Program-made: the position numbers and the translations under genes
Notes under the pieces: model-generated
What the model saw: the letters and a program-made list of their open reading frames with translations, nothing else
Database searches by the model: none
Told to the model about the DNA's origin: nothing
Assembly (NCBI GenBank): GCA_034435315.1
Contig: DAOTYB010000194.1
Location: forward strand, 1 to 42,038
Origin: Anaerolineae bacterium
GTDB lineage: Bacteria; Chloroflexota; Anaerolineae; UBA4142
Reading direction: 5' to 3'
Length of the DNA: 42,038 bases
In this document: positions 9,262-41,792 of the stretch, piece by piece
Numbering within the stretch: the stretch's first letter is position 1
Layout of the letters: each line of letters begins with the position of its first letter

Positions 9262-9385
9262 ATTGTGTAATTATTCAGCCGTGCCGTCCATCGCGACAAG
9301 CCCCACCCCCTTGCTCCTTCCCCACGCCGCTCTGCAGCGTGGGGAGGGGGAATTAGAGGGAGTGGGGTGGTGGCGGGGAGAAGGC
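9262..9385. repeat. GC-rich nested-palindrome element (same family as 18562-18728, 21583-21848, 41658-41792)
   Basis: Contains hairpin module ctccccacgccgctctgcagcgtggggag and flank gtaattattcagccgtgccgtccatcgcgacaagccccaccccc, which is the reverse complement of 41750-41795. Confidence 0.85.
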
Positions 9386-9571
9386 AACAGGGAGATGAGT
9401 GGGGTTGTCTCTTTGGGGTGAAAGATTTTTCACCCGTACAACGACGAAATTCAGGCTCAACCATCGGCTTGCGTTAGTCGTCGGTCGCTAACTGACAGCG
9501 AGCGATGCCGGGACTTGTCCCTGGTGGTATTATGCTCTAAATTGCCTGCAAACGCAAGTACCTTTGTCCTA

Positions 9572-9600
9572 TTGCCATTGCAAGCGGGATGTGATTAAAT
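9572..9600 (+). promoter_or_regulatory. Candidate sigma70-type promoter of the Ubl-system operon
   Basis: TTGCCA, 17 nt spacer, TTAAAT, with TG one base upstream of the -10 (extended -10 like). Predicted by eye only. Confidence 0.35.
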
Positions 9601-9610
9601 GCGTCCAGAT

Positions 9611-9637
9611 TGGTATTCTGGTCAGACCAGAATACCA
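9611..9637. promoter_or_regulatory. Perfect 27-nt palindrome (13+1+13), candidate GntR/FadR-type operator
   Basis: TGGTATTCTGGTC A GACCAGAATACCA. The core CTGGTcaGACCAG resembles FadR-type operators (TGGT-N-ACCA class). Ends 14 nt upstream of the ATG of the GntR-wHTH::E1 gene. Confidence 0.6.
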
Positions 9638-9650
9638 CAGGAAAGATGCG

Positions 9651-11318
9651 ATGAGAATTGATCCTGTCGAAAAAAGTACGCTGGCACAATCTGTGGCAGA
9701 ACGCCTTTTGCGTTTGATTGCTGATGGGACTTGTAAGCCCGGCGAAAAAATGCCGTCCGAACGCGAGTTGATGGAACGCCTTCAGGTAGCGCGTTCCACC
9801 GTGCGTGAAGCACTGCAAGCGCTTGCGGCGTCTCACGTCGTCGAGATTCGTCCCGGCGTCGGTACGTTTGTGCGCGAAAATGCGCGCGATCTGATTCCCG
9901 TTGCACTCGAAAGTTTGCGTAACCCGCGCGCAGTTGCAGCATCACGGAGTACATCGGGCGATGGCTCGGAACGCGTACAGGGCGCGGGGGTGAGTCCTTT
10001 GCCGCCTCCACCAGACAAACCGTTGCACATTCCGAATCTCAAAAAAGATCGGCTGGGGACGTTCGAGTTTATTTCGTGGTGGGAACGCAGCAAAGTTCAA
10101 GCCGCGCGTGTGATGGTGGTAGGCGCGGGCGCACTCGGTAACGAGGTGTTAAAAAATCTTGCTTTGATGGGCGTGGGCAACCTGTTCATCGTGGACTTTG
10201 ATACCATCGAAGCCGCCAATCTGAGTCGCTCGGTATTGTTCCGCGCCGAAGACAATGGCAAGAAAAAAGCCGAGGTTGCCGCGCGCCGCGTCAAAGAACT
10301 GAATCCCGATGTGCATGTTCAATATTTTCATGGCGATGTGAATGTTGCACTGGGGCTGGGCATCTTTCGTCGAATGGATGTGATTATCGGATGTCTCGAT
10401 AATCGCGAAGCGCGCCTGTCTATCAATCGCTTTGCGTATCGGTTGAACAAACCGTGGGTGGATGGTGCAATTCAAGAACTCTTTGGCTTGATGCGCGTGT
10501 TCGTCCCCGGGGAAGGAGCGTGCTACGAATGCACACTCACTGAACAAGCGCGCCGCGAAATGTCGTTGCGATACTCGTGCCCCCTGCTGGCGCGGCAAAA
10601 TATCTTGCTGGGCAAAGTGCCGACCACGCCAACCATCTCGGCGATTATTGCGGGACTGCAATCGCAAGAGGCGTTGAAACTCATTCACGGTATGCCGGTG
10701 CAGGCAGGCTATGTGACGCACGTCAACGGTTTGATCAACGAGTTTCACACCACTGCCTACACGCCCGATGAAAATTGTGAGAGTCATTGGATTTACGGAG
10801 ACATTACCGAGTTGCCGAACATCAAAGCCGCGACGACAACAGCAGCGGAACTCTTGCGTATCGCGCGCGAACAACTGGGTCCCGACGCGCTGATTGAACT
10901 CGATCAGGAAATCGTGACCCATCTGGAATGTCATCGTTGCGAAACGCGTACCGCGGTGTACAAACCCATCTCGCAGGTAAGTTACAACGAGGGATTGTGT
11001 CCCGGCTGTGGCGAGTTGCGCGAGGTGCAGATGGCGCACGTCATCACCGGCGATGAGCCGTTTCTGCACCGGACCCTTTTGGCGCTGGGGATTCCGCCGC
11101 TCCACATCGTGCGTGTGCGTAACGAGCACGAGTATCGCTTTTTGGAATTGACCGGCGATCTAGCCGAAACGTTGCACTGGTCGCACTTTGAGGGCGGCGC
11201 GCGTTCAGCGCATGCCGCGCGAGTGCGCTTGCATCCACGTCCGCGCATCAAACTGGGTGAGGTGGTTCAGGTGAACGCGCCGGTCGAACCCAAGCGTCCA
11301 CGAATCGTCGTGCATTAA
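9651..11318 (+). CDS. GntR-family winged-HTH fused to an E1-like (ThiF/MoeB/UBA-type) adenylating enzyme
   Basis: N-terminus LAQSVAERLLRLIADGTCKPGEKMPSERELMERLQVARSTVREALQALAASHVVEIRPGVGTFV is a GntR wHTH. A P/S-rich linker follows, then the Rossmann motif VMVVGAGALGNEVLKNLALMGVGNLFIVDFDTIEAANLSRS, plus CYEC, CHRC and CPGC zinc-type pairs. Start moved from 9564 to ATG 9651. Confidence 0.85.
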   Translation: MRIDPVEKSTLAQSVAERLLRLIADGTCKPGEKMPSERELMERLQVARSTVREALQALAASHVVEIRPGVGTFVRENARDLIPVALESLRNPRAVAASRSTSGDGSERVQGAGVSPLPPPPDKPLHIPNLKKDRLGTFEFISWWERSKVQAARVMVVGAGALGNEVLKNLALMGVGNLFIVDFDTIEAANLSRSVLFRAEDNGKKKAEVAARRVKELNPDVHVQYFHGDVNVALGLGIFRRMDVIIGCLDNREARLSINRFAYRLNKPWVDGAIQELFGLMRVFVPGEGACYECTLTEQARREMSLRYSCPLLARQNILLGKVPTTPTISAIIAGLQSQEALKLIHGMPVQAGYVTHVNGLINEFHTTAYTPDENCESHWIYGDITELPNIKAATTTAAELLRIAREQLGPDALIELDQEIVTHLECHRCETRTAVYKPISQVSYNEGLCPGCGELREVQMAHVITGDEPFLHRTLLALGIPPLHIVRVRNEHEYRFLELTGDLAETLHWSHFEGGARSAHAARVRLHPRPRIKLGEVVQVNAPVEPKRPRIVVH

Positions 11319-11345: not shown

Positions 11346-12197
11346 ATGACGAGTGAATTTTCCAACCGCTGGCAGTTCCGTATCGGTTTTCTGTTGAGCG
11401 CGTTTTCGGGATTTGCCTGGGGGCTTGTACTGGGCTGGGCGCTGGTACGCCTGAACGCCTATCTCTCGGCGTGGCTCACGCTGGGTGTCACGTTGCCGCT
11501 GTTGTTCTGGGGGAGTCTGCTCGCCGGGCTGGGGTTCAACGTGATGTTGCCGCGCTGGCACAAACTGGTGCGCTGGCTGGTCGCCATTCCCATCCTCAGC
11601 GCGGGAAGTTTGTGGGGTATCCTGTGGGCGCTGATTGCCGATGGGATGGACCCTGTCAACCTGATTCGCTCGACGGGCTGGACGCTCTGGCAGTTGGAAG
11701 GGGTAGTGATGCTCGTGGGCTTGCTGGGTGGCATCTATCCGCGCTGGACCCTTCCCTTCTTGCGCCTGCTGGGACATCTGGCGCGTGGAGCGCTGGCTGT
11801 GCCGCTGCACCTGCTCCAGCGTCTGGGCGATGGCGTGTTGTGGCTGCCCCGCCAAATGCTGCGCGCCCTCGCACACGCGCGGGATAACGTGCGAGCCTTG
11901 GTGCCGATGCTTCCTGCGCTGCCATCGTGGAGTGGTCCCGCGTCAACATCGTCTCCCGCGCGCCCACGGACGCGTCGAGTCAAGCCAGCCCAGCCCAGAC
12001 CGGTGCACAATCGCAACAATGATTCGAACGGCGCGCGCATTGTCGCGCACATCGAGGATCGCTGTCCGTATTGCCTGGATGTGATCAAACCAAACGACCC
12101 GCGCGGTGTACGCGTGTGTGAGGTGTGTCACACACCGCATCACGCCGATTGCTGGGCAATCGCGGGCAAATGTCAGATGCCCCATTTGAATCTCTAG
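11346..12197 (+). CDS. Polytopic (about 4 TM) membrane protein with a C-terminal RING-like binuclear zinc finger (Prok-RING-like; candidate E3)
   Basis: Four hydrophobic helices in aa 10-130 and a P/S/R-rich linker. C-terminal pattern is C240-x2-C243-x14-C258-x2-C261-x3-H265-x3-C269-W-x5-C276-x3-H280 (CPYC...CEVCHTPHHADCWAIAGKCQMPH). Confidence 0.75.
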   Translation: MTSEFSNRWQFRIGFLLSAFSGFAWGLVLGWALVRLNAYLSAWLTLGVTLPLLFWGSLLAGLGFNVMLPRWHKLVRWLVAIPILSAGSLWGILWALIADGMDPVNLIRSTGWTLWQLEGVVMLVGLLGGIYPRWTLPFLRLLGHLARGALAVPLHLLQRLGDGVLWLPRQMLRALAHARDNVRALVPMLPALPSWSGPASTSSPARPRTRRVKPAQPRPVHNRNNDSNGARIVAHIEDRCPYCLDVIKPNDPRGVRVCEVCHTPHHADCWAIAGKCQMPHLNL

Positions 12198-12211: not shown

Positions 12212-13069
12212 ATGGCGGACTTGAGTGTAACGCTAGTGTTGCCAACCGGTGGCGCGCGCACGGCGGAGGTGCCGGACGACGTGCCGGTGCGCGAATTGTT
12301 ACCCGAACTCGTTTCCGTACTCGAATTGCCGACCACGGGACCCGACGGCCGCCCAATGGGCTATCGGCTGGATAGCAAAGCCCTGGGGCGAGAACTGCGT
12401 GAGAATGAAACGCTGGCAGCCGCCGGTGTGCCGGCGAACGATCGGCTGATGATTACAGCGGACGTTACGGCGGGCGCGCCGACCGCGCTGGTGAATGCCA
12501 GTCCGCGCTTTCGCCGCCTCAAAGCCGATTACGAAAAAATGCTGGAACTCAAAGCGCATAGCGACATTATTGACTTTGAGGTGGTGGATGTCAAACCCGG
12601 TTTTCCACCCGAAAAGTACATCGTGACGTTCAAATGCAAAAGTATCATCGGCATTGATGCGGCGGGTAATCCCAAATTCGGCGACAAACATCAAGTAGCA
12701 ATTTACTTGCATAACGAATACCCCCATCGCTGGCCCGGTTTGAAATGGCTCACGCCCATCTGGCATCCTAACATCAAAGGGTCGAACGGCAGTGTGTGCA
12801 TTGATGCGGCGTGGTGGACGGCGGCACGCTCACTCGATCGCCTGGTGATTATGCTGGGCGAAATGGCACAGTGGAAAAATTTTCATGATGATCCGACCAA
12901 GCCGCCGTTCCCCTGGGACCTCGAAGCCGCCAAGTGGAGTATGAACTATCGCAAGAAACATCCCGACTTTTTTCCAGTGGACAAGCGTGAACTCTTGCGC
13001 CCCGAACGGGTCAAACTCAAAACCGCGCCGACCACAGCCAAATCCAAACCCAAAATCAAGTTGAAATGA
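12212..13069 (+). CDS. Ubiquitin-like domain fused to a canonical UBC-fold E2 (HPN motif + catalytic Cys)
   Basis: GGAGG SD 4 nt upstream of ATG 12212. Residues 1-88 are 81 percent identical to the free Ubl and end in the same TADVTAG. The E2 core is YPHRWPGLKWLTPIWHPNIKGSNGSVCID (Cys196 codon at 12797-12799) plus an N-terminal RFRRLKADYEKMLEL helix. Confidence 0.88.
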   Translation: MADLSVTLVLPTGGARTAEVPDDVPVRELLPELVSVLELPTTGPDGRPMGYRLDSKALGRELRENETLAAAGVPANDRLMITADVTAGAPTALVNASPRFRRLKADYEKMLELKAHSDIIDFEVVDVKPGFPPEKYIVTFKCKSIIGIDAAGNPKFGDKHQVAIYLHNEYPHRWPGLKWLTPIWHPNIKGSNGSVCIDAAWWTAARSLDRLVIMLGEMAQWKNFHDDPTKPPFPWDLEAAKWSMNYRKKHPDFFPVDKRELLRPERVKLKTAPTTAKSKPKIKLK

Positions 13070-13115: not shown

Positions 13116-13382
13116 ATGGCAGACGTGCCTGTAACGCTGGTTCTTCCGGCCGGTGGCTCGCGTACCGCCGAAGTACCCAACGATGTACCCATCAAGGACT
13201 TGTTGCCCGAACTCACTTCATCCTTGCAACTCCCCACCACGGGACCCGATGGCCGTCCGATGAGTTATCGGATTGACAGCAAGGCATTGGGGCGTGAACT
13301 GCGCGAGGATGAAACGCTCGAATCCGCCGGCGTGCCCGCAAACGATCGGCTGATGCTGACAGCGGATGTGACCGCCGGCTAG
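13116..13382 (+). CDS. Free ubiquitin-like (beta-grasp type) protein, 88 aa, ending in Gly
   Basis: GGAGG SD 6 nt upstream. Sequence MADVPVTLVLPAGGSRTAEVPNDVPIKDLLPELTSSLQLPTTGPDGRPMSYRIDSKALGRELREDETLESAGVPANDRLMLTADVTAG then stop. Paralog of the N-terminal domain of the E2 fusion. Confidence 0.85.
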   Translation: MADVPVTLVLPAGGSRTAEVPNDVPIKDLLPELTSSLQLPTTGPDGRPMSYRIDSKALGRELREDETLESAGVPANDRLMLTADVTAG

Positions 13383-13447: not shown

Positions 13448-14566
13448 ATGTCATCGGCTGGGGTAGCCGCCACACCTTTTCACGCGCTGGCGATCGTCGC
13501 ATCACACAACGCCGATGCCGCGCCGATGCTGTACGAACTACAGAGTGAATCCACGACCATCGGCTCGGCAGAGGATAACGCGATCGTTCTGGTGGATGCC
13601 AGCATTGCGCCGCATCACTGCACCGTGCGTCGTCAAGGCGAGTCCGTGTATCTTCTGGTGGATGTGGGCGAACGTCTGCGCGCGCGCGCGGATACGTGGG
13701 ACACCGCACTTCCCGGCGACACCTATTGGTGTCCCCGTCACGGCAAGGTGGAACAACTGGATGCGCGCCGGTGGTGTGCCCAGTGCAAACGTCGGCGCGG
13801 TTCGTTGTGGTTGATGCGTCCACTCCACCCGGGCGATACGTTCGAGATTGGCGCGGCGTTTCGGGCGACCTATGTGGTGCACGAGCGCGAGGGAGAAGCG
13901 CACGATGCGTCTTCTCCGTTATCGCACCCGTTAGCCCCTGCCCCAGCGCGCTCCATCTCACTCATACCAGCCGAAACGTCTTTGCCGGTGCGTCCCCCGC
14001 CGCGCGACGACTCGAATGTATGGTGCTGGCAACCTGAAGGCGTACCCTTTCCCATCTACTTGCACCAGCGCGTCAATCTCCACGTCACGCAGCATGCGCG
14101 CCAGAATATGGATCGCGAAGTTGGGGGTGTTTTACTCGGCGAGGTGGGGCTGGATGAGCAGGGGCAAATGTACGTCTATGTGACGCACGCTATCAAAGCC
14201 GAGTTCACCACCGAAGCGCGCGGACACCTCACCTTTTCTCATCGCACCTGGTTGCAGATTCATTCGATTCACCAGACGTTGTATCCCGACAGACTGATTG
14301 TCGGATGGTATCACACGCATCCGGGGTGGACGATTTTTCTCTCGCCGTGGGATTTGTTCATCCATCGAAATTTTTTCAAACAGCCCTGGCAGATTGCGCT
14401 TGTGATTGATCCGACGCTGGATCGCGCCGGCTTTTTCGTGTGGAAGGACAATCAAATCGCCAGTCCGCATCAGCCGATTGCTCCCTTTCGTCTGGCAGAA
14501 CTCGACTACTGGATGGAACTATTCAAACCGCGCGTGCGCGTCAAACTGACCGATACGGCGCGCTGA
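13448..14566 (+). CDS. FHA-like domain (with Cys/His insert) fused to a JAMM/MPN+ metalloprotease (candidate deconjugating/processing enzyme 1)
   Basis: FHA-like STTIGSAEDNAIVLVDASIAPHHCTV...VYLLVDVG ... GDTFEIG with insert WCPRHGKVEQLDARRWCAQCKRRRG. JAMM motifs are REVGGVLLGEV and GWYHTHPGWTIFLSPWD (HxHx7Sx2D). Confidence 0.85.
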   Translation: MSSAGVAATPFHALAIVASHNADAAPMLYELQSESTTIGSAEDNAIVLVDASIAPHHCTVRRQGESVYLLVDVGERLRARADTWDTALPGDTYWCPRHGKVEQLDARRWCAQCKRRRGSLWLMRPLHPGDTFEIGAAFRATYVVHEREGEAHDASSPLSHPLAPAPARSISLIPAETSLPVRPPPRDDSNVWCWQPEGVPFPIYLHQRVNLHVTQHARQNMDREVGGVLLGEVGLDEQGQMYVYVTHAIKAEFTTEARGHLTFSHRTWLQIHSIHQTLYPDRLIVGWYHTHPGWTIFLSPWDLFIHRNFFKQPWQIALVIDPTLDRAGFFVWKDNQIASPHQPIAPFRLAELDYWMELFKPRVRVKLTDTAR

Positions 14567-14580
14567 TAGAAGGAGGTAAA

Positions 14581-15231
14581 GTGTTGCGGGTCAAACTAGG
14601 AGGCACTGTACCCAGCCCCATCATCGAACGACCGATGCCACTGGCTCAAGCGTTGCAGTGGGTCTCGCCGTACGAGGCGGAGGTGGCAGCGCAGGTGCGC
14701 ATCTTTTTCACGCAATCCGCTTATCGCCGTTGTGCGGAACATACGCAAAGCGATTTGGACCACGAAGTGGGAGGCGCGCTCGTGGGCGAGGTATGTTACG
14801 ACGCGCTCTATGCGCAGACGTACATCGTGATTCAAGACATCCTCCCCGCTCTCTTTGCGCGCGCGGGCGAAACGCATCTGACCTTTACACAGGACACGCT
14901 GGTTGATTTCAATAACCAACTGGAGGCGCGTTTTCCGGACAAACGGATTGTGGGATGGTATCACACGCATCCGCGTCTGGGAGTGTTCTTATCGGGATAC
15001 GATACTTTTTTGCATCGGCATTTTTTTCCTGACCCGAATCAAGTAGCACTCGTCATTGATCCGGCGGCACAGCAGGCGGGCTTTTTTTGCTGGCAACGTG
15101 ACGCCTCGCTCGATCCGCGGCGCTATGTCGGTTTCTATGAGGTGAGCGATCTGGACGAGTACAGCATCGTCGAGTGGGAGAATCTCACACCAGCGGTCTC
15201 GGTGCAGACGCCAGAAAGTGAGGCACAATGA
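14581..15231 (+). CDS. Stand-alone JAMM/MPN+ metalloprotease (candidate deconjugating/processing enzyme 2)
   Basis: AGGAGG at 14571-14576, then GTG 14581 (ATG 14635 is an alternative). Motifs HEVGGALVGEV and GWYHTHPRLGVFLSGYD. Clear paralog of the C-terminal half of the previous gene. Confidence 0.85.
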   Translation: MLRVKLGGTVPSPIIERPMPLAQALQWVSPYEAEVAAQVRIFFTQSAYRRCAEHTQSDLDHEVGGALVGEVCYDALYAQTYIVIQDILPALFARAGETHLTFTQDTLVDFNNQLEARFPDKRIVGWYHTHPRLGVFLSGYDTFLHRHFFPDPNQVALVIDPAAQQAGFFCWQRDASLDPRRYVGFYEVSDLDEYSIVEWENLTPAVSVQTPESEAQ

Positions 15232-16088
15232 GTTTACGAATGCGGGCGTACTATTACGCGATTCTGGGCGCGATCGGCGCGCTCATTGGTGGACGTATCG
15301 GCGATACGATTGGTTTTGTGCACGGGATGAATGTGTATGTGAGTGATGTCATCCTCGGCGCGATTCTGGGGTTGAGTATCGGTGTGTTGATTGGTGCCAG
15401 CGAGGGTTTGCTGGAGCGCTCGTGGTATCGCACGCTGCGCGCCGCTCTGGTGGCGGGCAGCATTGGCATGGTGGCAGGCGCGGTGGGCTTGCCCATCGGC
15501 GAGTTGGTGTTTCAACTCTCCGGCGGCGAACTCGTTGGACGTGCGCTGGGGTGGGCGCTGTTCGGTTTGCTGATTGGCTGGTCGGAAGGCTACATCACCG
15601 GAGCACAGGCGTGGAAAGGCGCGCTGGGCGGCGTGGTGGGGGGAACCATCGGCGGGGTCATTTTGTTTCTCCTGCAATCTCTCTTCGGTGCCTCGGAGTT
15701 GGGCAAGATTCTGGGCTTGAGCGTGTTGGGCGCGGCGGTGGGTGCGTTCATTGCCTTGATTGTGGTGATCCTCTCGCGCGCGTGGCTCGAAGTCAAAACG
15801 GGTAAACTCAAAGGCAATGAATTCATCCTCGACAAATTCTTGCCCACACACGGACCCGCCGCGATTATCGGCAGTAACGATTTCAAAGCGGACATTGCAC
15901 TCCCCGACCCGGCGATTGCACCCCAACATGCGCGCTTGAAAGGCGCGGGCACACACTTTGTGATTGAGGATATGAGTGTGGGCAAAGGAACGTTCGTGAA
16001 TGGTCGCAAAGTGGAAACAGCGCGCTTGACGAACAACGCGGTCATTCGTCTGGGCAACACCGAGTTGGTGTACCACGAGCGACGTTAA
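15228..16088 (+). CDS. Gly-rich polytopic membrane protein with a C-terminal FHA domain
   Basis: ATGA start/stop overlap with the upstream JAMM gene. N-terminal glycine-zipper-like helices. C-terminus AIIGSNDFKADIALPDPAIAPQHARLKGAGTHFVIEDMSVGKGTFVNGRKVETARLTNNAVIRLGNTELVY. Confidence 0.85.
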   Translation: MSLRMRAYYYAILGAIGALIGGRIGDTIGFVHGMNVYVSDVILGAILGLSIGVLIGASEGLLERSWYRTLRAALVAGSIGMVAGAVGLPIGELVFQLSGGELVGRALGWALFGLLIGWSEGYITGAQAWKGALGGVVGGTIGGVILFLLQSLFGASELGKILGLSVLGAAVGAFIALIVVILSRAWLEVKTGKLKGNEFILDKFLPTHGPAAIIGSNDFKADIALPDPAIAPQHARLKGAGTHFVIEDMSVGKGTFVNGRKVETARLTNNAVIRLGNTELVYHERR

Positions 16089-16184
16089 GCGATTGCCGAT
16101 TTTCGATTTGCGATTTGCGATTTTCACTGGAAGCCGCGATCGGCAATTGGCAATCGCACATCGGCAATCGGCAATCGCAAATCG
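16089..16184. repeat. Inverted heptamer arrays (CGATTTG-like x5, 12-nt spacer, AATCGSM-like x6-7), hairpin-capable
   Basis: gcgattgccgattttcgatttgcgatttgcgattttc ... gatcggcaattggcaatcgcacatcggcaatcggcaatcgcaaatcg read directly. Located between the FHA and vWA genes. Confidence 0.9.
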
Positions 16185-16199
16185 ACAGCAGGGGGTCGT

Positions 16200-17414
16200 A
16201 TGAGAAAGTTTATCGTCTTCTGGATGTGGGTGTGCGTGTTCGGCTGGCTTGCTGCGACGGGGGTGCAGGCGCAAGCGCAGGTGAATATCCGCGTGACGCA
16301 AGTGGATACCTCGCGCTTTCCACAGGTGGACGTGTACATCTCGGTCACGGATGCCAGCGGCAATCCCGTGCGTCACATTTCCCCGAGCGCCTTTCGCGTG
16401 ACGGAGAATGGCGCAGAAATGTCGCTGACCAGCGTCACGCGCGCGGGTGAGCAAGGCGCGGTCAACACTATCTTGATTATTGATCGCAGCGGCAGTATGG
16501 CGGCGGGCGACAAGATGGTCGCGGCGAAACAAGCGGCGAGTACCTTTGTCAATTTGATGCGCCCCGGCGACAAGACCGCGTTGATCCAGTTCGATACCGA
16601 AATCGAGACACTGCAAACGTTCACGGATGACAAAGCCAGGTTGTTGGCGGCGATTCAAAAAATCTTTCCGCGCGGCAATACCGCGCTGTACGATGCGCTG
16701 GATCACGCCGCGCGCTATTTCGAGACGGTGCAGGGACGCAAAGCCATCATCGTGCTGACCGACGGTATGGATACAGCAAGCAAACTGGGGCGTGAAGCGA
16801 TTGTGCAACGTGTGAGTCACGGTGGCTTTTCGGTTTACACCGTGGGGCTGGGTGCCCGCAATACGGCGTATGGCAGTCAAGAAGGCGTTGACGAGGAGAT
16901 TTTGCGTGAACTGGCAAACGTGACCTATGGCAATTACTACTACAGTCCCGATGGCAGCCAGTTGAGTGAACTGTATCAACAGTTGTCGTTCCTGCTCCAG
17001 AACGAATACAAACTCACCTACCTTTCACCCAATCCTTTGCGCGATGGCGTCAAGCGCAACATTGTGGTCACGGCGATGGGCGCCGGCAGTACACGCACCG
17101 AGTTCAATCCCGGTGGCGTCATTCCCGAAGTGGCAACGCAGGCGACCTCGTGGATCCTCTTTTTCGTCGTGCTGGCGGTGTTGCTCGCGCTGTTACTCGT
17201 TCCTGCGGCAATACACCTGCTCCGCGCGCGCGGGGTGGCGCTGCCGACTGTGCCCACGTCTGCGTCAGCGCCGCAGAAACCGAGTCGTATCAAATTGACC
17301 GGTGAGGCTCCACCGGCAGGAACGGCGCAACCTAAATCGCGCATCAAGATCAAACAATCATCCAGCGACACCGCGCGCCCGATGCCGTGGGATGAAAATC
17401 CAGATGGACATTGA
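16200..17414 (+). CDS. Secreted vWA-domain protein with a C-terminal TM anchor and a Lys/Ser/Thr-rich cytoplasmic tail
   Basis: Signal peptide MRKFIVFWMWVCVFGWLAATGVQAQA, MIDAS motif IIDRSGSM with downstream T and D, TM helix WILFFVVLAVLLALLLVPAAIHLL, and a tail with two PxSRIK motifs. Confidence 0.85.
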   Translation: MRKFIVFWMWVCVFGWLAATGVQAQAQVNIRVTQVDTSRFPQVDVYISVTDASGNPVRHISPSAFRVTENGAEMSLTSVTRAGEQGAVNTILIIDRSGSMAAGDKMVAAKQAASTFVNLMRPGDKTALIQFDTEIETLQTFTDDKARLLAAIQKIFPRGNTALYDALDHAARYFETVQGRKAIIVLTDGMDTASKLGREAIVQRVSHGGFSVYTVGLGARNTAYGSQEGVDEEILRELANVTYGNYYYSPDGSQLSELYQQLSFLLQNEYKLTYLSPNPLRDGVKRNIVVTAMGAGSTRTEFNPGGVIPEVATQATSWILFFVVLAVLLALLLVPAAIHLLRARGVALPTVPTSASAPQKPSRIKLTGEAPPAGTAQPKSRIKIKQSSSDTARPMPWDENPDGH

Positions 17415-17479
17415 GCGTCTGGCGTATCGCAAACGCCATTCACTATACGCCATACGCTTTCTACTCAAGGGAGGTTAGA

Positions 17480-18511
17480 ATGTCGAACGTATTTGAACAG
17501 ATGCCCGATGTAGGCAAAAAGAAACCCACGAGTGCCGCCAAGACGCCCAGTCGCACACCGCTGGTGGTGGGAGCACTCGCCGTATTTTTAATGCTGTTGT
17601 TGTGTGCGTTGCTGGCTGGTGGCGGCTATTGGCTCTGGTCGTCTCAGCAGGGCAGCCCCGTCGCTCTATCTCCAACGCCCGGCGTCAAGTTCGCACAGCC
17701 GGTTATGCCTGTCGGAGGCCGCGTCCGCATCGCCTTTAGTGTCGAGCGCGGGGGGCGCCCTGAAGACAAGTTCGTGTGGATAATGAACGCCGATGGGAGT
17801 GATGCCAGGCAGGTGCTCAAGAATGCGTCTTCGCCCGCTCTTTCGCCGGACGGTTCGTTGATTGCCTACTATCACTGGAACGAGGGCATTCACGTGGCGA
17901 ATGTCAATGGGACCAACGCGCGCAAGATCGTGGGCGAAGCGCATGCCAAGTATCTCGCCTGGTCGAATGATGGCAAATGGATTGCCTTTTCCTCGCAACC
18001 GATTCTGGATCGCACGGTGCTGGTCAACATTGATGCGGTGCGCGTGGATGGTAGCGGGCGGCGTACCATCGTTTATGGCGGTACGCAACCGTCGTGGTCG
18101 CCGGACGACAAGTACATTGCGTTTGCTACTTGTCGCGGTTCCGATTGTGGCATCTACAAAGCCAGTTCGGCAGGCGGAGATGCCGGTACTCCCATCACTA
18201 AAGATTTGGGAACGAACCCCGCTTGGTCACCCACAGGCAATCAGATTCTATATCAGGCTGATGTGGACGGGGTCAAGCACTTGTTTGTTGTGAACGTGGA
18301 TGGTAGTGGCAAACGTCAACTCACGTGGGGTACTTCGCCGCGCGTGGGCGCGCAATGGTCGCCGGACGGAAGTGCCATCTACTATCGCGCGCTCGAAGAT
18401 GGAGTGTGGAGCATCTGGCGAATGAATGCAGATGGCTCGAACCCTGTCCGCATCGCTACCGATGTACCACCTGTTGATTGGGCGTACGAACGCCTGGCGC
18501 TGAGTCGCTAA
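17480..18511 (+). CDS. N-terminally anchored TolB-like beta-propeller protein (PD40/WD40-like repeats)
   Basis: GGGAGG SD upstream of ATG 17480. Short basic cytoplasmic tail, TM helix, and repeated SPDG / WSPD / DGS blades (ALSPDGSLIAY, AWSNDGKWIAF, SWSPDDKYIAF, AWSPTGNQILY, QWSPDGSAIYY). Confidence 0.85.
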   Translation: MSNVFEQMPDVGKKKPTSAAKTPSRTPLVVGALAVFLMLLLCALLAGGGYWLWSSQQGSPVALSPTPGVKFAQPVMPVGGRVRIAFSVERGGRPEDKFVWIMNADGSDARQVLKNASSPALSPDGSLIAYYHWNEGIHVANVNGTNARKIVGEAHAKYLAWSNDGKWIAFSSQPILDRTVLVNIDAVRVDGSGRRTIVYGGTQPSWSPDDKYIAFATCRGSDCGIYKASSAGGDAGTPITKDLGTNPAWSPTGNQILYQADVDGVKHLFVVNVDGSGKRQLTWGTSPRVGAQWSPDGSAIYYRALEDGVWSIWRMNADGSNPVRIATDVPPVDWAYERLALSR

Positions 18512-18561: not shown

Positions 18562-18728
18562 TTCAACGGTCGCAAACTTTCATTTTGGTTTGCACAGTAC
18601 AGGCTTGACCCCACTCATCCCCCTGCCCTCTTCTCTCCCCGCGTGGCGGGGAGAGAAGAGGGAGATGGGGGTGGGGCTTGACGCCATAGACGGCAACGGC
18701 TTAAAACGAAAGTTTGTGCCCGTGCCGG
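18562..18728. repeat. GC-rich nested-palindrome element, short form
   Basis: Outer arms cgcaaactttcatttt / aaaacgaaagtttgtgc. Inner 17-bp perfect hairpin ccctcttctctccccgc-gtg-gcggggagagaagaggg. Near-identical flanks recur at 21583-21848. Confidence 0.9.
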
Positions 18729-21582: not shown

Positions 21583-21848
21583 TAACGGTCGCAAACTTGC
21601 ATTTTGGTTTACACAGTTACAGGCTTGACCCCACTCATCCCCCTGCCCCCTGCTCTCCCCGCGTCGCGGGGAGAGCAGGGGGGGATGACGGGGTGGTGGC
21701 GGGCGGCGAAGCCGCCCACCCACTCCCCCGCTTTTGATTCCCCCTCCCCACGCCGCAGAGCGGCGTGGGGAGGGGATTAGGGGATGGGGCTTGACGCCAT
21801 AGACAGCACGGCTGAGTAATTAAATGAAAGTTTGCACCCGTGCCGGGT
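21583..21848. repeat. GC-rich nested-palindrome element, long form with two additional hairpin modules inserted
   Basis: Same outer arms as 18562-18728, plus modules ggtggcgggcggcgaagccgcccaccc and ccctccccacgccgcagagcggcgtggggaggg. Confidence 0.9.
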
Positions 21849-41640: not shown

Positions 41641-41657
41641 AGCCCCAATGCTTGAAG

Positions 41658-41792
41658 GGCGGGGTAGTGGCGGGCGGCGAAGCCGCCCGCCACTACCCCG
41701 CCCTTGATTCTCCCTCCCCACGCCGCTCTGCGGCGTGGGGAGGGGGCAAGGGGGTGGGGCTTTTCGCGATGGATGACACGGCTGAGTAATTA
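41658..41792. repeat. GC-rich nested-palindrome element
   Basis: Modules gtagtggcgggcggcgaagccgcccgccactac and ctccctccccacgccgctctgcggcgtggggaggggg, plus flank ggggtggggcttttcgcgatggatgacacggctgagtaattac. Confidence 0.9.

Follow-up and report, generated by a model that had tools for sequence, protein, structure and literature searches.

A predicted ubiquitin-type activating enzyme fused to a GntR winged helix in Anaerolineae, and the conserved operator-like site at its promoter

A contig of an Anaerolineae bacterium (DAOTYB010000194.1, assembly GCA_034435315.1), analysed whole as a window of 42,038 nt to which all coordinates refer, encodes a protein in which a GntR-family winged helix–turn–helix (wHTH) is joined to a ubiquitin-type activating enzyme (E1). 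The gene, here called wHTH–E1, heads a conserved operon for the conjugation of a ubiquitin-like protein (Ubl). By comparing related loci, we find that the fusion is conserved and that it comes with an operator sequence that keeps its position before the start codon, is specific to fused loci and is identical to the operators of regulators with GntR and FCD domains (GntR+FCD). A preliminary description, made from the window alone, had proposed that the E1 binds its own operator and autoregulates the operon. As far as sequence goes this reading is supported, and we consider it probable that the fused wHTH binds the operator and controls its own transcription.

The wHTH–E1 fusion

Pfam finds both halves in a single open reading frame (ORF), as the preliminary description had read them, and the wHTH sequence that it quoted is present. 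The GntR model (PF00392) matches aa 11–74 over its full length (positions 1–64 of 64) with 75.4 bits against a cut-off of 27 (E = 2.8e-21), and the ThiF model (PF00899) matches aa 145–377 with 193.6 bits against a cut-off of 28.1 (E = 3.8e-57). An S/G/P-rich segment joins the two. AlphaFold2, run on an alignment of 70 sequences, gave a mean predicted local distance difference test score (pLDDT) of 78.7 for the 555-aa protein. By segment, aa 97–141 are disordered, aa 145–380 and 385–510 are confidently predicted, the crossover loop at aa 297–317 scores low, and the tail at aa 525–555 is disordered (below 50). Among relatives the linker varies in length and sequence over aa 80–115; from about aa 116 onwards it is the conserved N terminus of the E1 core, and the matches of unfused relatives begin at aa 116–140. 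The gene and its parts are as follows.

9651–11318, forward strand: wHTH–E1 gene, 555 aa from the ATG at 9651 (Pfam; protein conservation from M1)
9681–9938, forward strand: GntR winged helix–turn–helix domain, aa 11–96 (Pfam match aa 11–74; pLDDT about 90)
9939–10073, forward strand: flexible linker, aa 97–141 (pLDDT below 50)
10083–10781, forward strand: E1 adenylation domain, aa 145–377 (Pfam, invariant motifs, AlphaFold2)
10803–11180, forward strand: C-terminal domain, aa 385–510 (pLDDT above 90; aligned by Foldseek with the ubiquitin-fold part of UBA3)

A start at TTG 9564, taken from a mechanical ORF list, was rejected: conservation begins at Met1, encoded by the ATG at 9651, and the longer frame is not credible because the conserved promoter would fall inside the extension. 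Several public entries of 570–577 aa (P0001, P0003, P0004, P0020 and P0023) begin upstream of the ATG, so that their translations run into operator and promoter sequence; the starts of these entries are mis-annotated.

The wHTH has the residues expected of a DNA-binding FadR relative. Its closest solved relatives by sequence are FadR-family proteins, PdhR and NanR. A 70-sequence alignment, which underlies all statements on invariant residues of the protein below, shows no variation at R38, R48, R52 and E37, while T50 is conserved to at least 90%, a level that G69 reaches in an alignment of 14 sequences. BLASTP aligns R38, R48, R52 and T50 with R35, R45, R49 and T47 of Escherichia coli FadR, in which R35, R45, T47, R49 and G66 contact DNA (PMC4494728, Table 1, and in part general knowledge).

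The E1 part is closer in sequence to eukaryotic activating enzymes (UBA7, UBA1 and SAE2 among solved structures) than to ThiF and MoeB. A Foldseek search of the Protein Data Bank with the whole protein, the C-terminal domain not being queried alone, placed UBA3, the catalytic subunit of the NEDD8 E1, first (about 431 columns, with a high global root-mean-square deviation), followed by ThiF, UBA5 and MccB. Invariant residues include the glycine-rich ATP loop G158-A-G-A-L-G163, D182, D184, R193 of the NLSR motif, K206, D250, the CLDN motif, the CxxC pairs C291/C294 and C450/C453, and C310; in the C-terminal domain Cys427, Cys430, Cys450 and Cys453 are conserved. C310 lies in an invariant R-Y-S-C310-P-L-L segment within the low-scoring crossover-loop region, a plausible position for the candidate catalytic cysteine. 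Because the ATP-binding and catalytic-loop residues are invariant and this is the sole E1 of the operon, the E1 part is by all sequence signs intact and under the selection expected of an active enzyme. Pfam detected neither an FCD/FadR_C domain, the C-terminal part consisting of ThiF and the domain that aligns with the UBA3 ubiquitin-fold domain (UFD), nor an aminotransferase domain; models for PdxR and YczR match the wHTH only.

To place the protein among its relatives we searched 5.8 billion proteins, which yielded 7,982 matches, and checked domains in the best 120 clusters (60–98% identity), which derive from NCBI, JGI, ENA and Logan assemblies. Both Pfam domains are present in 118 of the 120, and the two exceptions are short proteins covering 72–78% of the query. 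When one genome of each GTDB species was scanned, 558 stretches encoding a relative came to light; locus counts below refer to the best 80 of these, all from metagenome-assembled genomes (MAGs) of Anaerolineae/Chloroflexota. The N terminus is present in 79 of them, and the remaining one is a truncated contig. Whether wHTH and E1 are one gene or two, a check set by the preliminary description, is thus answered in favour of one. Source annotations name the protein 'ThiF family adenylyltransferase', 'GntR family transcriptional regulator' or, at JGI, by a double name, and therefore annotation pipelines have seen both halves.

In a protein library clustered at 50% identity, which holds 563 representatives with E up to 1e-30, the fused family is a single full-length representative, and the other close relatives match only residues 120–508, approximately, of the query; the close ones listed are at most 56% identical to it and mostly 380–420 aa long. 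Because only one representative is full length and its other close relatives are unfused, the fusion, to judge from the sequences, was acquired by one clade of a larger E1 family that otherwise lacks it. For comparison we used seven distinct sister loci without the fusion. They are E1/E2/RING/JAB/YukD operons of varied gene order in which the E1 operates with the same kind of Ubl without a wHTH domain, and no separate GntR gene stands beside any of the seven.

An operator conserved at fused loci

Between promoter and start codon lies the 27-nt palindrome TGGTATTCTGGTC-A-GACCAGAATACCA, the only copy in the window even when three mismatches are allowed (shuffled sequences predict none). The upstream region contains the following elements.

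9556–9571, forward strand: second conserved element, AAGTACCTTTGTCCTA, abutting the -35 box (conserved alignment columns)
9572–9577, forward strand: -35 hexamer TTGCCA, aligned with TTGACA, TTGCCA or TTTACT of relatives
9592–9600, forward strand: extended -10 element TG-A-TTAAAT (TG at 9592–9593, TTAAAT at 9595–9600), with a 17-nt spacer from the -35 hexamer
9611–9637, no strand: operator, two 13-nt arms 1 nt apart, 100% complementary
9611–9616 and 9632–9637, no strand: flanking inverted boxes TGGTAT and ATACCA (alignment of sites)
9619–9629, no strand: inner FadR-type palindrome TGGTCAGACCA (information content, matrix score)
9639–9645, forward strand: Shine–Dalgarno-like AGGAAAG, 5 nt before the ATG (sequence read)

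Reading of the sequence and a repeat finder agree on the perfect 13+1+13 palindrome upstream of the ATG that the preliminary description had reported. Its perfect symmetry is a property of this window and a few relatives and not of the family, in which 3 of 63 distinct sites have perfect 13-nt arms; what relatives conserve is the identity of the bases. The family sequence is TGGTC[T/A]GACCA-NN-ATACCA, with ATACCA at positions +8 to +13 from the centre. Across the 76 sites of the operator profile, the inner core TGGT-C[T/A]G-ACCA is invariant, and information content reaches 2.0 bits at GGTC and GAC, 1.7 at T (-5), 1.55 at C (+4) and 1.5 at A (+5). In the outer right box it is 1.4–2.0 bits at A (+8) and ACCA (+10 to +13), with the 2.0 bits reached at ACC, and about 1.0 at T (+9). 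The mirror-image TGGTAT at -13 to -8 is less strictly conserved, with only 0.2–0.9 bits, and in many cases runs up to or into the -10 box.

This sequence has the form of a FadR/GntR operator, as had been claimed for its core. Operators of the FadR subfamily are, by consensus, palindromes of TKGT/ACMA boxes in which three bases separate GT from AC, a form that TGGT-N3-ACCA matches, and additional boxes beside palindromes are noted for the GntR family, NanR and NagQ binding TGGTAT(A/T) repeats (PMC4494728).

The motif sits a few nucleotides before the ATG in nearly all 150-nt upstream regions of the related loci. Its core, GGTCnGAC, occurs in 73 of 79 such regions, once in each, where about 0.014 occurrences per region are expected, and two further loci carry it 196 nt upstream of E1. 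We scanned the complete loci of the 80 sources (2–42 kb, both strands) with a leave-one-out matrix: in all 80 the top site of the locus fell upstream of the start of E1 and no more than 260 nt from it, with a score of 20–44 bits in 76 and no next-best site anywhere above 11.4 bits. The operator of the window scores 41.5 bits and the next-best site in the window 9.4. Over 1.05 Mb, GGTCnGACC occurs 84 times against about 25 expected, and the whole excess consists of E1 sites. The gap from operator to ATG is short, constrained and purine-rich (7–13 nt in relatives, mode 11 nt). The search of orthologous clusters for the same palindrome, proposed as a check, was thus positive in 76 of the 80 sources, with 20 bits as the minimum score, and, as described below, in 65 metagenome contigs. 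The motif is absent from the seven unfused sister loci (best score 4.5 bits), so that wHTH fusion and operator strictly co-occur in this comparison (76 of 80 fused against 0 of 7 unfused; Fisher p = 5.6e-8).

A dispersed repeat, named beforehand as a finding that would speak against an operator, is rejected, since the palindrome is a single copy in the window and each locus has one site. The window does contain dispersed intergenic inverted repeats, a GC-rich family (CCCCTCCCCACGCCGC / GCGGCGTGGGGAGGGG and variants) found at 9316–9348, 18626–18662, 21646–21682, 21741–21775, 41655–41705 and 41712–41744; they look like repetitive extragenic palindromic (REP)-like or terminator hairpins and are unrelated to the operator. 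A terminator was also rejected for the operator itself, which has no T-run and no match from a terminator scanner and lies downstream of a conserved promoter.

The promoter TTGCCA-17-TTAAAT with its TG extension is present as first described. Both hexamers fall in conserved columns, the -10 of seven aligned relatives reading TAGAAT, TAAGAT, TATATT, TATCAT or TACAAT in the same column, although a consensus scanner rejects the promoter of the window for a -10 hexamer without A at position 2. Most loci have five or six of the six bases of TTGACA, 16–18 nt from a TATA(A/C)T box. From the end of the -10 box to the centre of the operator there are 13–16 nt in about 56 of 76 loci and 22–24 nt in the subclade of the window; in most loci the site begins at or just after the -10 box and spans the expected start point. 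Because a bound protein would sit where RNA polymerase sits in both geometries, we infer that binding represses.

A second element abuts the -35 box. Its family consensus is approximately TAGTAC-N6/7-CCTA. Of 69 loci, 28 match a strict regular expression for it at 55–70 nt before the centre of the operator, where chance predicts about 0.001 matches per region. Three loci (L060, GTAAATAGTACTTAAGTACTATTTAC; L058; L004) have the element as a perfect palindrome; the window holds no other good copy, and the element is rare elsewhere. The element at 9556–9571 presumably does not belong to a sigma-54 promoter, the pattern of which it does not fit; it may be a site for a second regulator or a further site for wHTH–E1.

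The operator sequence also occurs away from E1 genes. A metagenome collection scanned for TGGTCTGACCANNATACCA returned 120 contigs, which divide as follows.

65 of 120 contigs (60 on one strand, 5 on the other): GntR–E1 gene directly after the motif
About 20 of 120 contigs: divergent gene for an aldehyde dehydrogenase, and a GntR+FCD gene at a distance of about 1.5 kb
9 of 120 contigs: promoter of a stand-alone GntR+FCD gene
10 of 120 contigs: no neighbour, the contig ending too early
About 16 of 120 contigs: unclear or in coding sequence, about the chance expectation

The sites outside E1 loci carry the 19-nt motif TGGTCTGACCACTATACCA on metagenome contigs in the series L090–L206 (for example L096, 7042–7060, and L134, L104 and L109), and the wHTH domains of the GntR+FCD proteins are 34–46% identical to that of E1. 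Because an identical 19-mer marks GntR+FCD and aldehyde dehydrogenase promoters, the TGGTCTGACCANNATACCA-type motif would be a working recognition site of classical FadR-type regulators, and the E1 wHTH has evidently, from this sequence agreement, kept DNA specificity of the GntR+FCD type. The aldehyde dehydrogenase and GntR+FCD loci themselves seem to make up an uncharacterised regulon of the FadR type, one with the same DNA specificity as the E1 fusion.

Alternative readings and a proposed mechanism

These occurrences raise the alternative that a separate FadR-type regulator of the GntR+FCD kind, encoded elsewhere, binds the operator while the wHTH of E1 has another role or competes with it. 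The shared 19-mer and the similarity of the wHTH domains speak for such a protein. Yet of the E1 loci compared only those with a fused wHTH carry the motif, no GntR gene besides E1 occurs in the 42-kb window or within the flanks of about 8 kb examined at the 80 loci, and the DNA-contact residues of the fused domain are invariant, so we regard this explanation as unlikely. Still less probable, in our judgement, is that the N-terminal winged helix recognises peptide or protein, holding the Ubl or a substrate in the manner of the RRE-type modules of MccB or PaaA. ThiF-like enzymes with an N-terminal clamp of wHTH fold do exist, and MccB and PaaA are among the structural and sequence matches; against this, the domain is a full-score GntR domain (75 bits against 27) and not an RRE, it keeps the DNA contacts of FadR and co-occurs with a matching GntR operator, and unfused sister E1s manage the same kind of Ubl without it.

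The palindrome could, alternatively, act as an RNA or DNA hairpin (a stem–loop in the 5′ untranslated region (UTR), a cruciform or a terminator) rather than as a protein site. If transcribed, the copy in the window would form a 12-bp stem of -21.3 kcal/mol (z = -4.3) within the probable 5′ UTR, 13 nt before the ATG. The 63 distinct sites, on which the pairing statistics are based, argue the other way. Their inner bases are invariant and show no compensatory changes; the inner five pairs never vary and are therefore uninformative on pairing, but only 13 of the 63 sites can pair at positions ±6 and only 11 at ±7, perfect arms are as rare as noted above, and the left outer arm is often missing where ATACCA is kept. 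There is no T-run, and the identical sequence stands in divergent promoters of GntR+FCD genes. Conservation of particular bases together with an asymmetric outer box is, in such an alignment, the pattern of a protein-binding site, and we give the hairpin very little credence. That the fusion itself is an artefact of assembly or annotation, two genes joined by an indel, can be practically dismissed: nothing favours it, some entries merely differing in N-terminal length (570–577 aa), and the frame is always open despite varying linker length across independent NCBI, JGI, ENA and Logan assemblies.

Autoregulation by the fused wHTH would then work as follows. The C-terminal part of a bifunctional E1 would activate, in the manner of ubiquitin-type E1s, the YukD-like Ubl that the operon encodes, and the FadR-subfamily winged helix would be carried at its N terminus on a flexible tether of about 35–45 residues. 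The E1 core would dimerise as ThiF, MoeB, UBA5 and MccB do, taking the place of the FCD effector and dimerisation domain, so that the two wHTH domains of a dimer could bind the inner palindrome TGGT-N3-ACCA; the outer TGGTAT/ATACCA boxes may recruit a second dimer. With the site just downstream of the -10 element and over the probable transcription start, binding should repress the E1-RING-Ubl~E2-Ubl-JAB-JAB-FHA-VWA operon, and this negative autoregulation would cap the amount of conjugation machinery.

Several points weigh against this mechanism or qualify it. The sites of four loci (L008, L009, L012 and L013) are weak or degenerate. Repression rather than activation is deduced from promoter geometry alone, and dimerisation of the E1 is assumed from its relatives. 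To judge by the second upstream element, one or more additional factors or sites take part. Finally, GntR+FCD regulators elsewhere recognise the same sequence, and therefore a trans-acting paralogue could be the real binder or a second one.

A further, more doubtful possibility is that the protein is a trigger enzyme, in which the catalytic state controls DNA binding and transcription of the operon is set by the flux of Ubl through E1; the preliminary description had suggested a coupling to Ubl/ATP occupancy. The controlling state may be occupancy by ATP or Ubl-adenylate, a Ubl~Cys310 thioester, docking of E2, or a self-modification of the wHTH or linker that is reversed by the JAB proteins. 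If true, the operon would be under BirA-like feedback, and ubiquitin-type activation chemistry would for the first time be tied directly to promoter occupancy.

The operon and related systems

Downstream of wHTH–E1 the window encodes a complete set of conjugation genes.

11346–12197, forward strand: prokaryotic RING finger protein, candidate E3 (Pfam Prok-RING_1; 77 of 80 loci, directly after E1)
12212–13069, forward strand: YukD-like Ubl domain fused to an E2 (UQ_con), likely start MADLSV at 12212 (76 of 80 loci)
13116–13382, forward strand: free YukD-like Ubl of 88 aa ending ...TADVTAG (70–92% identical in 76 of 80 loci)
13448–14566, forward strand: FHA-JAB protein (Pfam; order conserved in 63–66 loci)
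14440–15231, forward strand: second JAB protein (Pfam; order conserved in 63–66 loci)
15228–16088, forward strand: FHA protein (Pfam; order conserved in 63–66 loci)
16200–17414, forward strand: VWA-domain protein, with which the widely conserved part of the operon ends (62 loci)

By tblastn across the 80 loci, gene order is the same in every locus long enough to show it, and the E2, the RING finger, JAB and a beta-grasp Ubl ending in Gly are co-operonic, with order conserved in 62–77 of the 80. The genes that precede E1 show no conservation (an isocitrate dehydrogenase gene on the opposite strand occupies this place in the window only), and because of this the E1 promoter marks the upstream border of the conserved operon. 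The operon holds no other E1 gene and no gene for a second, inactive adenylation subunit. It has been inherited vertically across Anaerolineae rather than sporadically, and a MAG assigned to Anaerolinea thermophila carries it (L071).

Some features of these genes deserve mention in their own right. The N-terminal Ubl copy of the E2 ends in TADVTAG, as does the free 88-aa Ubl encoded next to it, and both are present in 76 of 80 loci; this suggests that Ubl-E2 is a precursor processed by the JAB peptidases of the operon or a built-in Ubl mimic. A PD40 beta-propeller gene (17411–18511) follows the VWA gene in the window and in five close relatives (53–66% identity), and the VWA and PD40 proteins may be substrates or adaptors of the conjugation system. 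Opposite the FHA and VWA genes, on the reverse strand, runs a 581-aa ORF (15234–16979) that is in all likelihood no real gene; its weak tblastn matches in 63 loci arise only because it shadows the conserved genes of the forward strand. One of the unfused sister operons (L210, 1–11161: FHA-RING, E1, E2, RING-YukD proteins, YukD and JAB) directly follows two genes of the Pup-ligase family and an AAA ATPase gene, which hints at a tie between YukD-type conjugation and Pup/proteasome-type proteolysis.

The same enzymes and operon logic are known from prokaryotic E1-E2-RING-JAB-Ubl operons (PMC3417536; that of Caldiarchaeum, PMC5654768), which share with the present one a YukD-like Ubl with C-terminal Gly and an E1 nearer to eukaryotic E1s. 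The unfused E1s of such operons are about 380–420 aa long and have neither a DNA-binding domain nor an upstream operator of this type. Bil, Bub and CBASS-Cap2 have E1, E2 and JAB chemistry in common with it and are often under separate repressors, for example CapW or CapH/CapP (PMC11601596); these are separate proteins of other families, whereas here the wHTH lies within the E1. A known defence system of the Bil, Bub or CBASS-Cap2 kind was rejected from searches with PADLOC and NCBIfam, which have no model for the protein or the system: in PADLOC the adenylation core partially matches E1-E2 and BilD models and the RING, Ubl-E2, Ubl, FHA and VWA proteins match none, and no NCBIfam model was reached by proteins of the operon. 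In the full-text literature searched, which did not extend to the Burroughs/Iyer/Aravind surveys of 2009, 2011 and 2012, no GntR–E1 protein is described, and an E1 with a DNA-binding domain is not mentioned in Iyer 2006, PMC11601596, a 2024 review, PMC3417536 or PMC5654768.

Bacterial Ubl conjugation systems are being studied intensively, and the cases in which their regulation is known use separate repressors. Here the activating enzyme itself carries a DNA-binding domain, and more than 100 independent loci define the cis element to the base pair, so that one protein and one 27-bp duplex would be enough for a direct test of regulation. For the ubiquitin field the protein would be an E1 that reads DNA, in a complete E1-E2-RING-deubiquitinase (DUB) cascade that extends across Anaerolineae, a class with cultivated strains. 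For the GntR field it would bring an effector or oligomerisation domain from outside the six recognised subfamilies, since the classification by C-terminal domain comprises FadR, HutC, MocR, YtrA, AraR and PlmA and does not include an E1 domain (PMC4494728).

Among GntR proteins, the FadR subfamily (FadR, PdhR, LldR and NanR) has the most similar wHTH and shares its DNA-contacting Arg and Thr residues with wHTH–E1, together with the operator core TGGT-N3-ACCA, extra boxes of the TGGTAT type and a site in the regulator's own promoter. Its members carry an all-helical FCD domain of 150–170 aa, in place of which wHTH–E1 has a disordered linker and an intact E1 of 430 aa; a ligand of the small-carboxylate or acyl-CoA kind is accordingly not to be expected. 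The MocR subfamily (GabR and PdxR) likewise combines a GntR wHTH with a long flexible linker and a large dimeric domain of enzyme fold. GabR recognises ATACCA boxes (PMC4756830, PMC4494728), and the enzyme-like domain of MocR proteins serves as a sensory and effector domain (PMC5320631). That domain has the fold of an aminotransferase dependent on pyridoxal phosphate (PLP), and the domain here is a Rossmann-type E1. In wHTH–E1, moreover, every catalytic motif is kept, and the operon has no activating enzyme besides it.

In plan, although not in fold or family, which are unrelated, the protein resembles trigger enzymes such as BirA, the biotin protein ligase and bio repressor, an adenylate-forming, protein-modifying enzyme with an N-terminal wHTH and an operator in the promoter of its own pathway, whose adenylate is a corepressor that drives dimerisation. 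Autoregulation by a fused helix–turn–helix is a familiar bacterial theme, and it is the architecture that is unusual: judged by its sequence, wHTH–E1 can be seen as a probable GntR-family autoregulator whose C-terminal module is new, or just as well as a prokaryotic ubiquitin-type E1 that has gained a DNA-binding domain.

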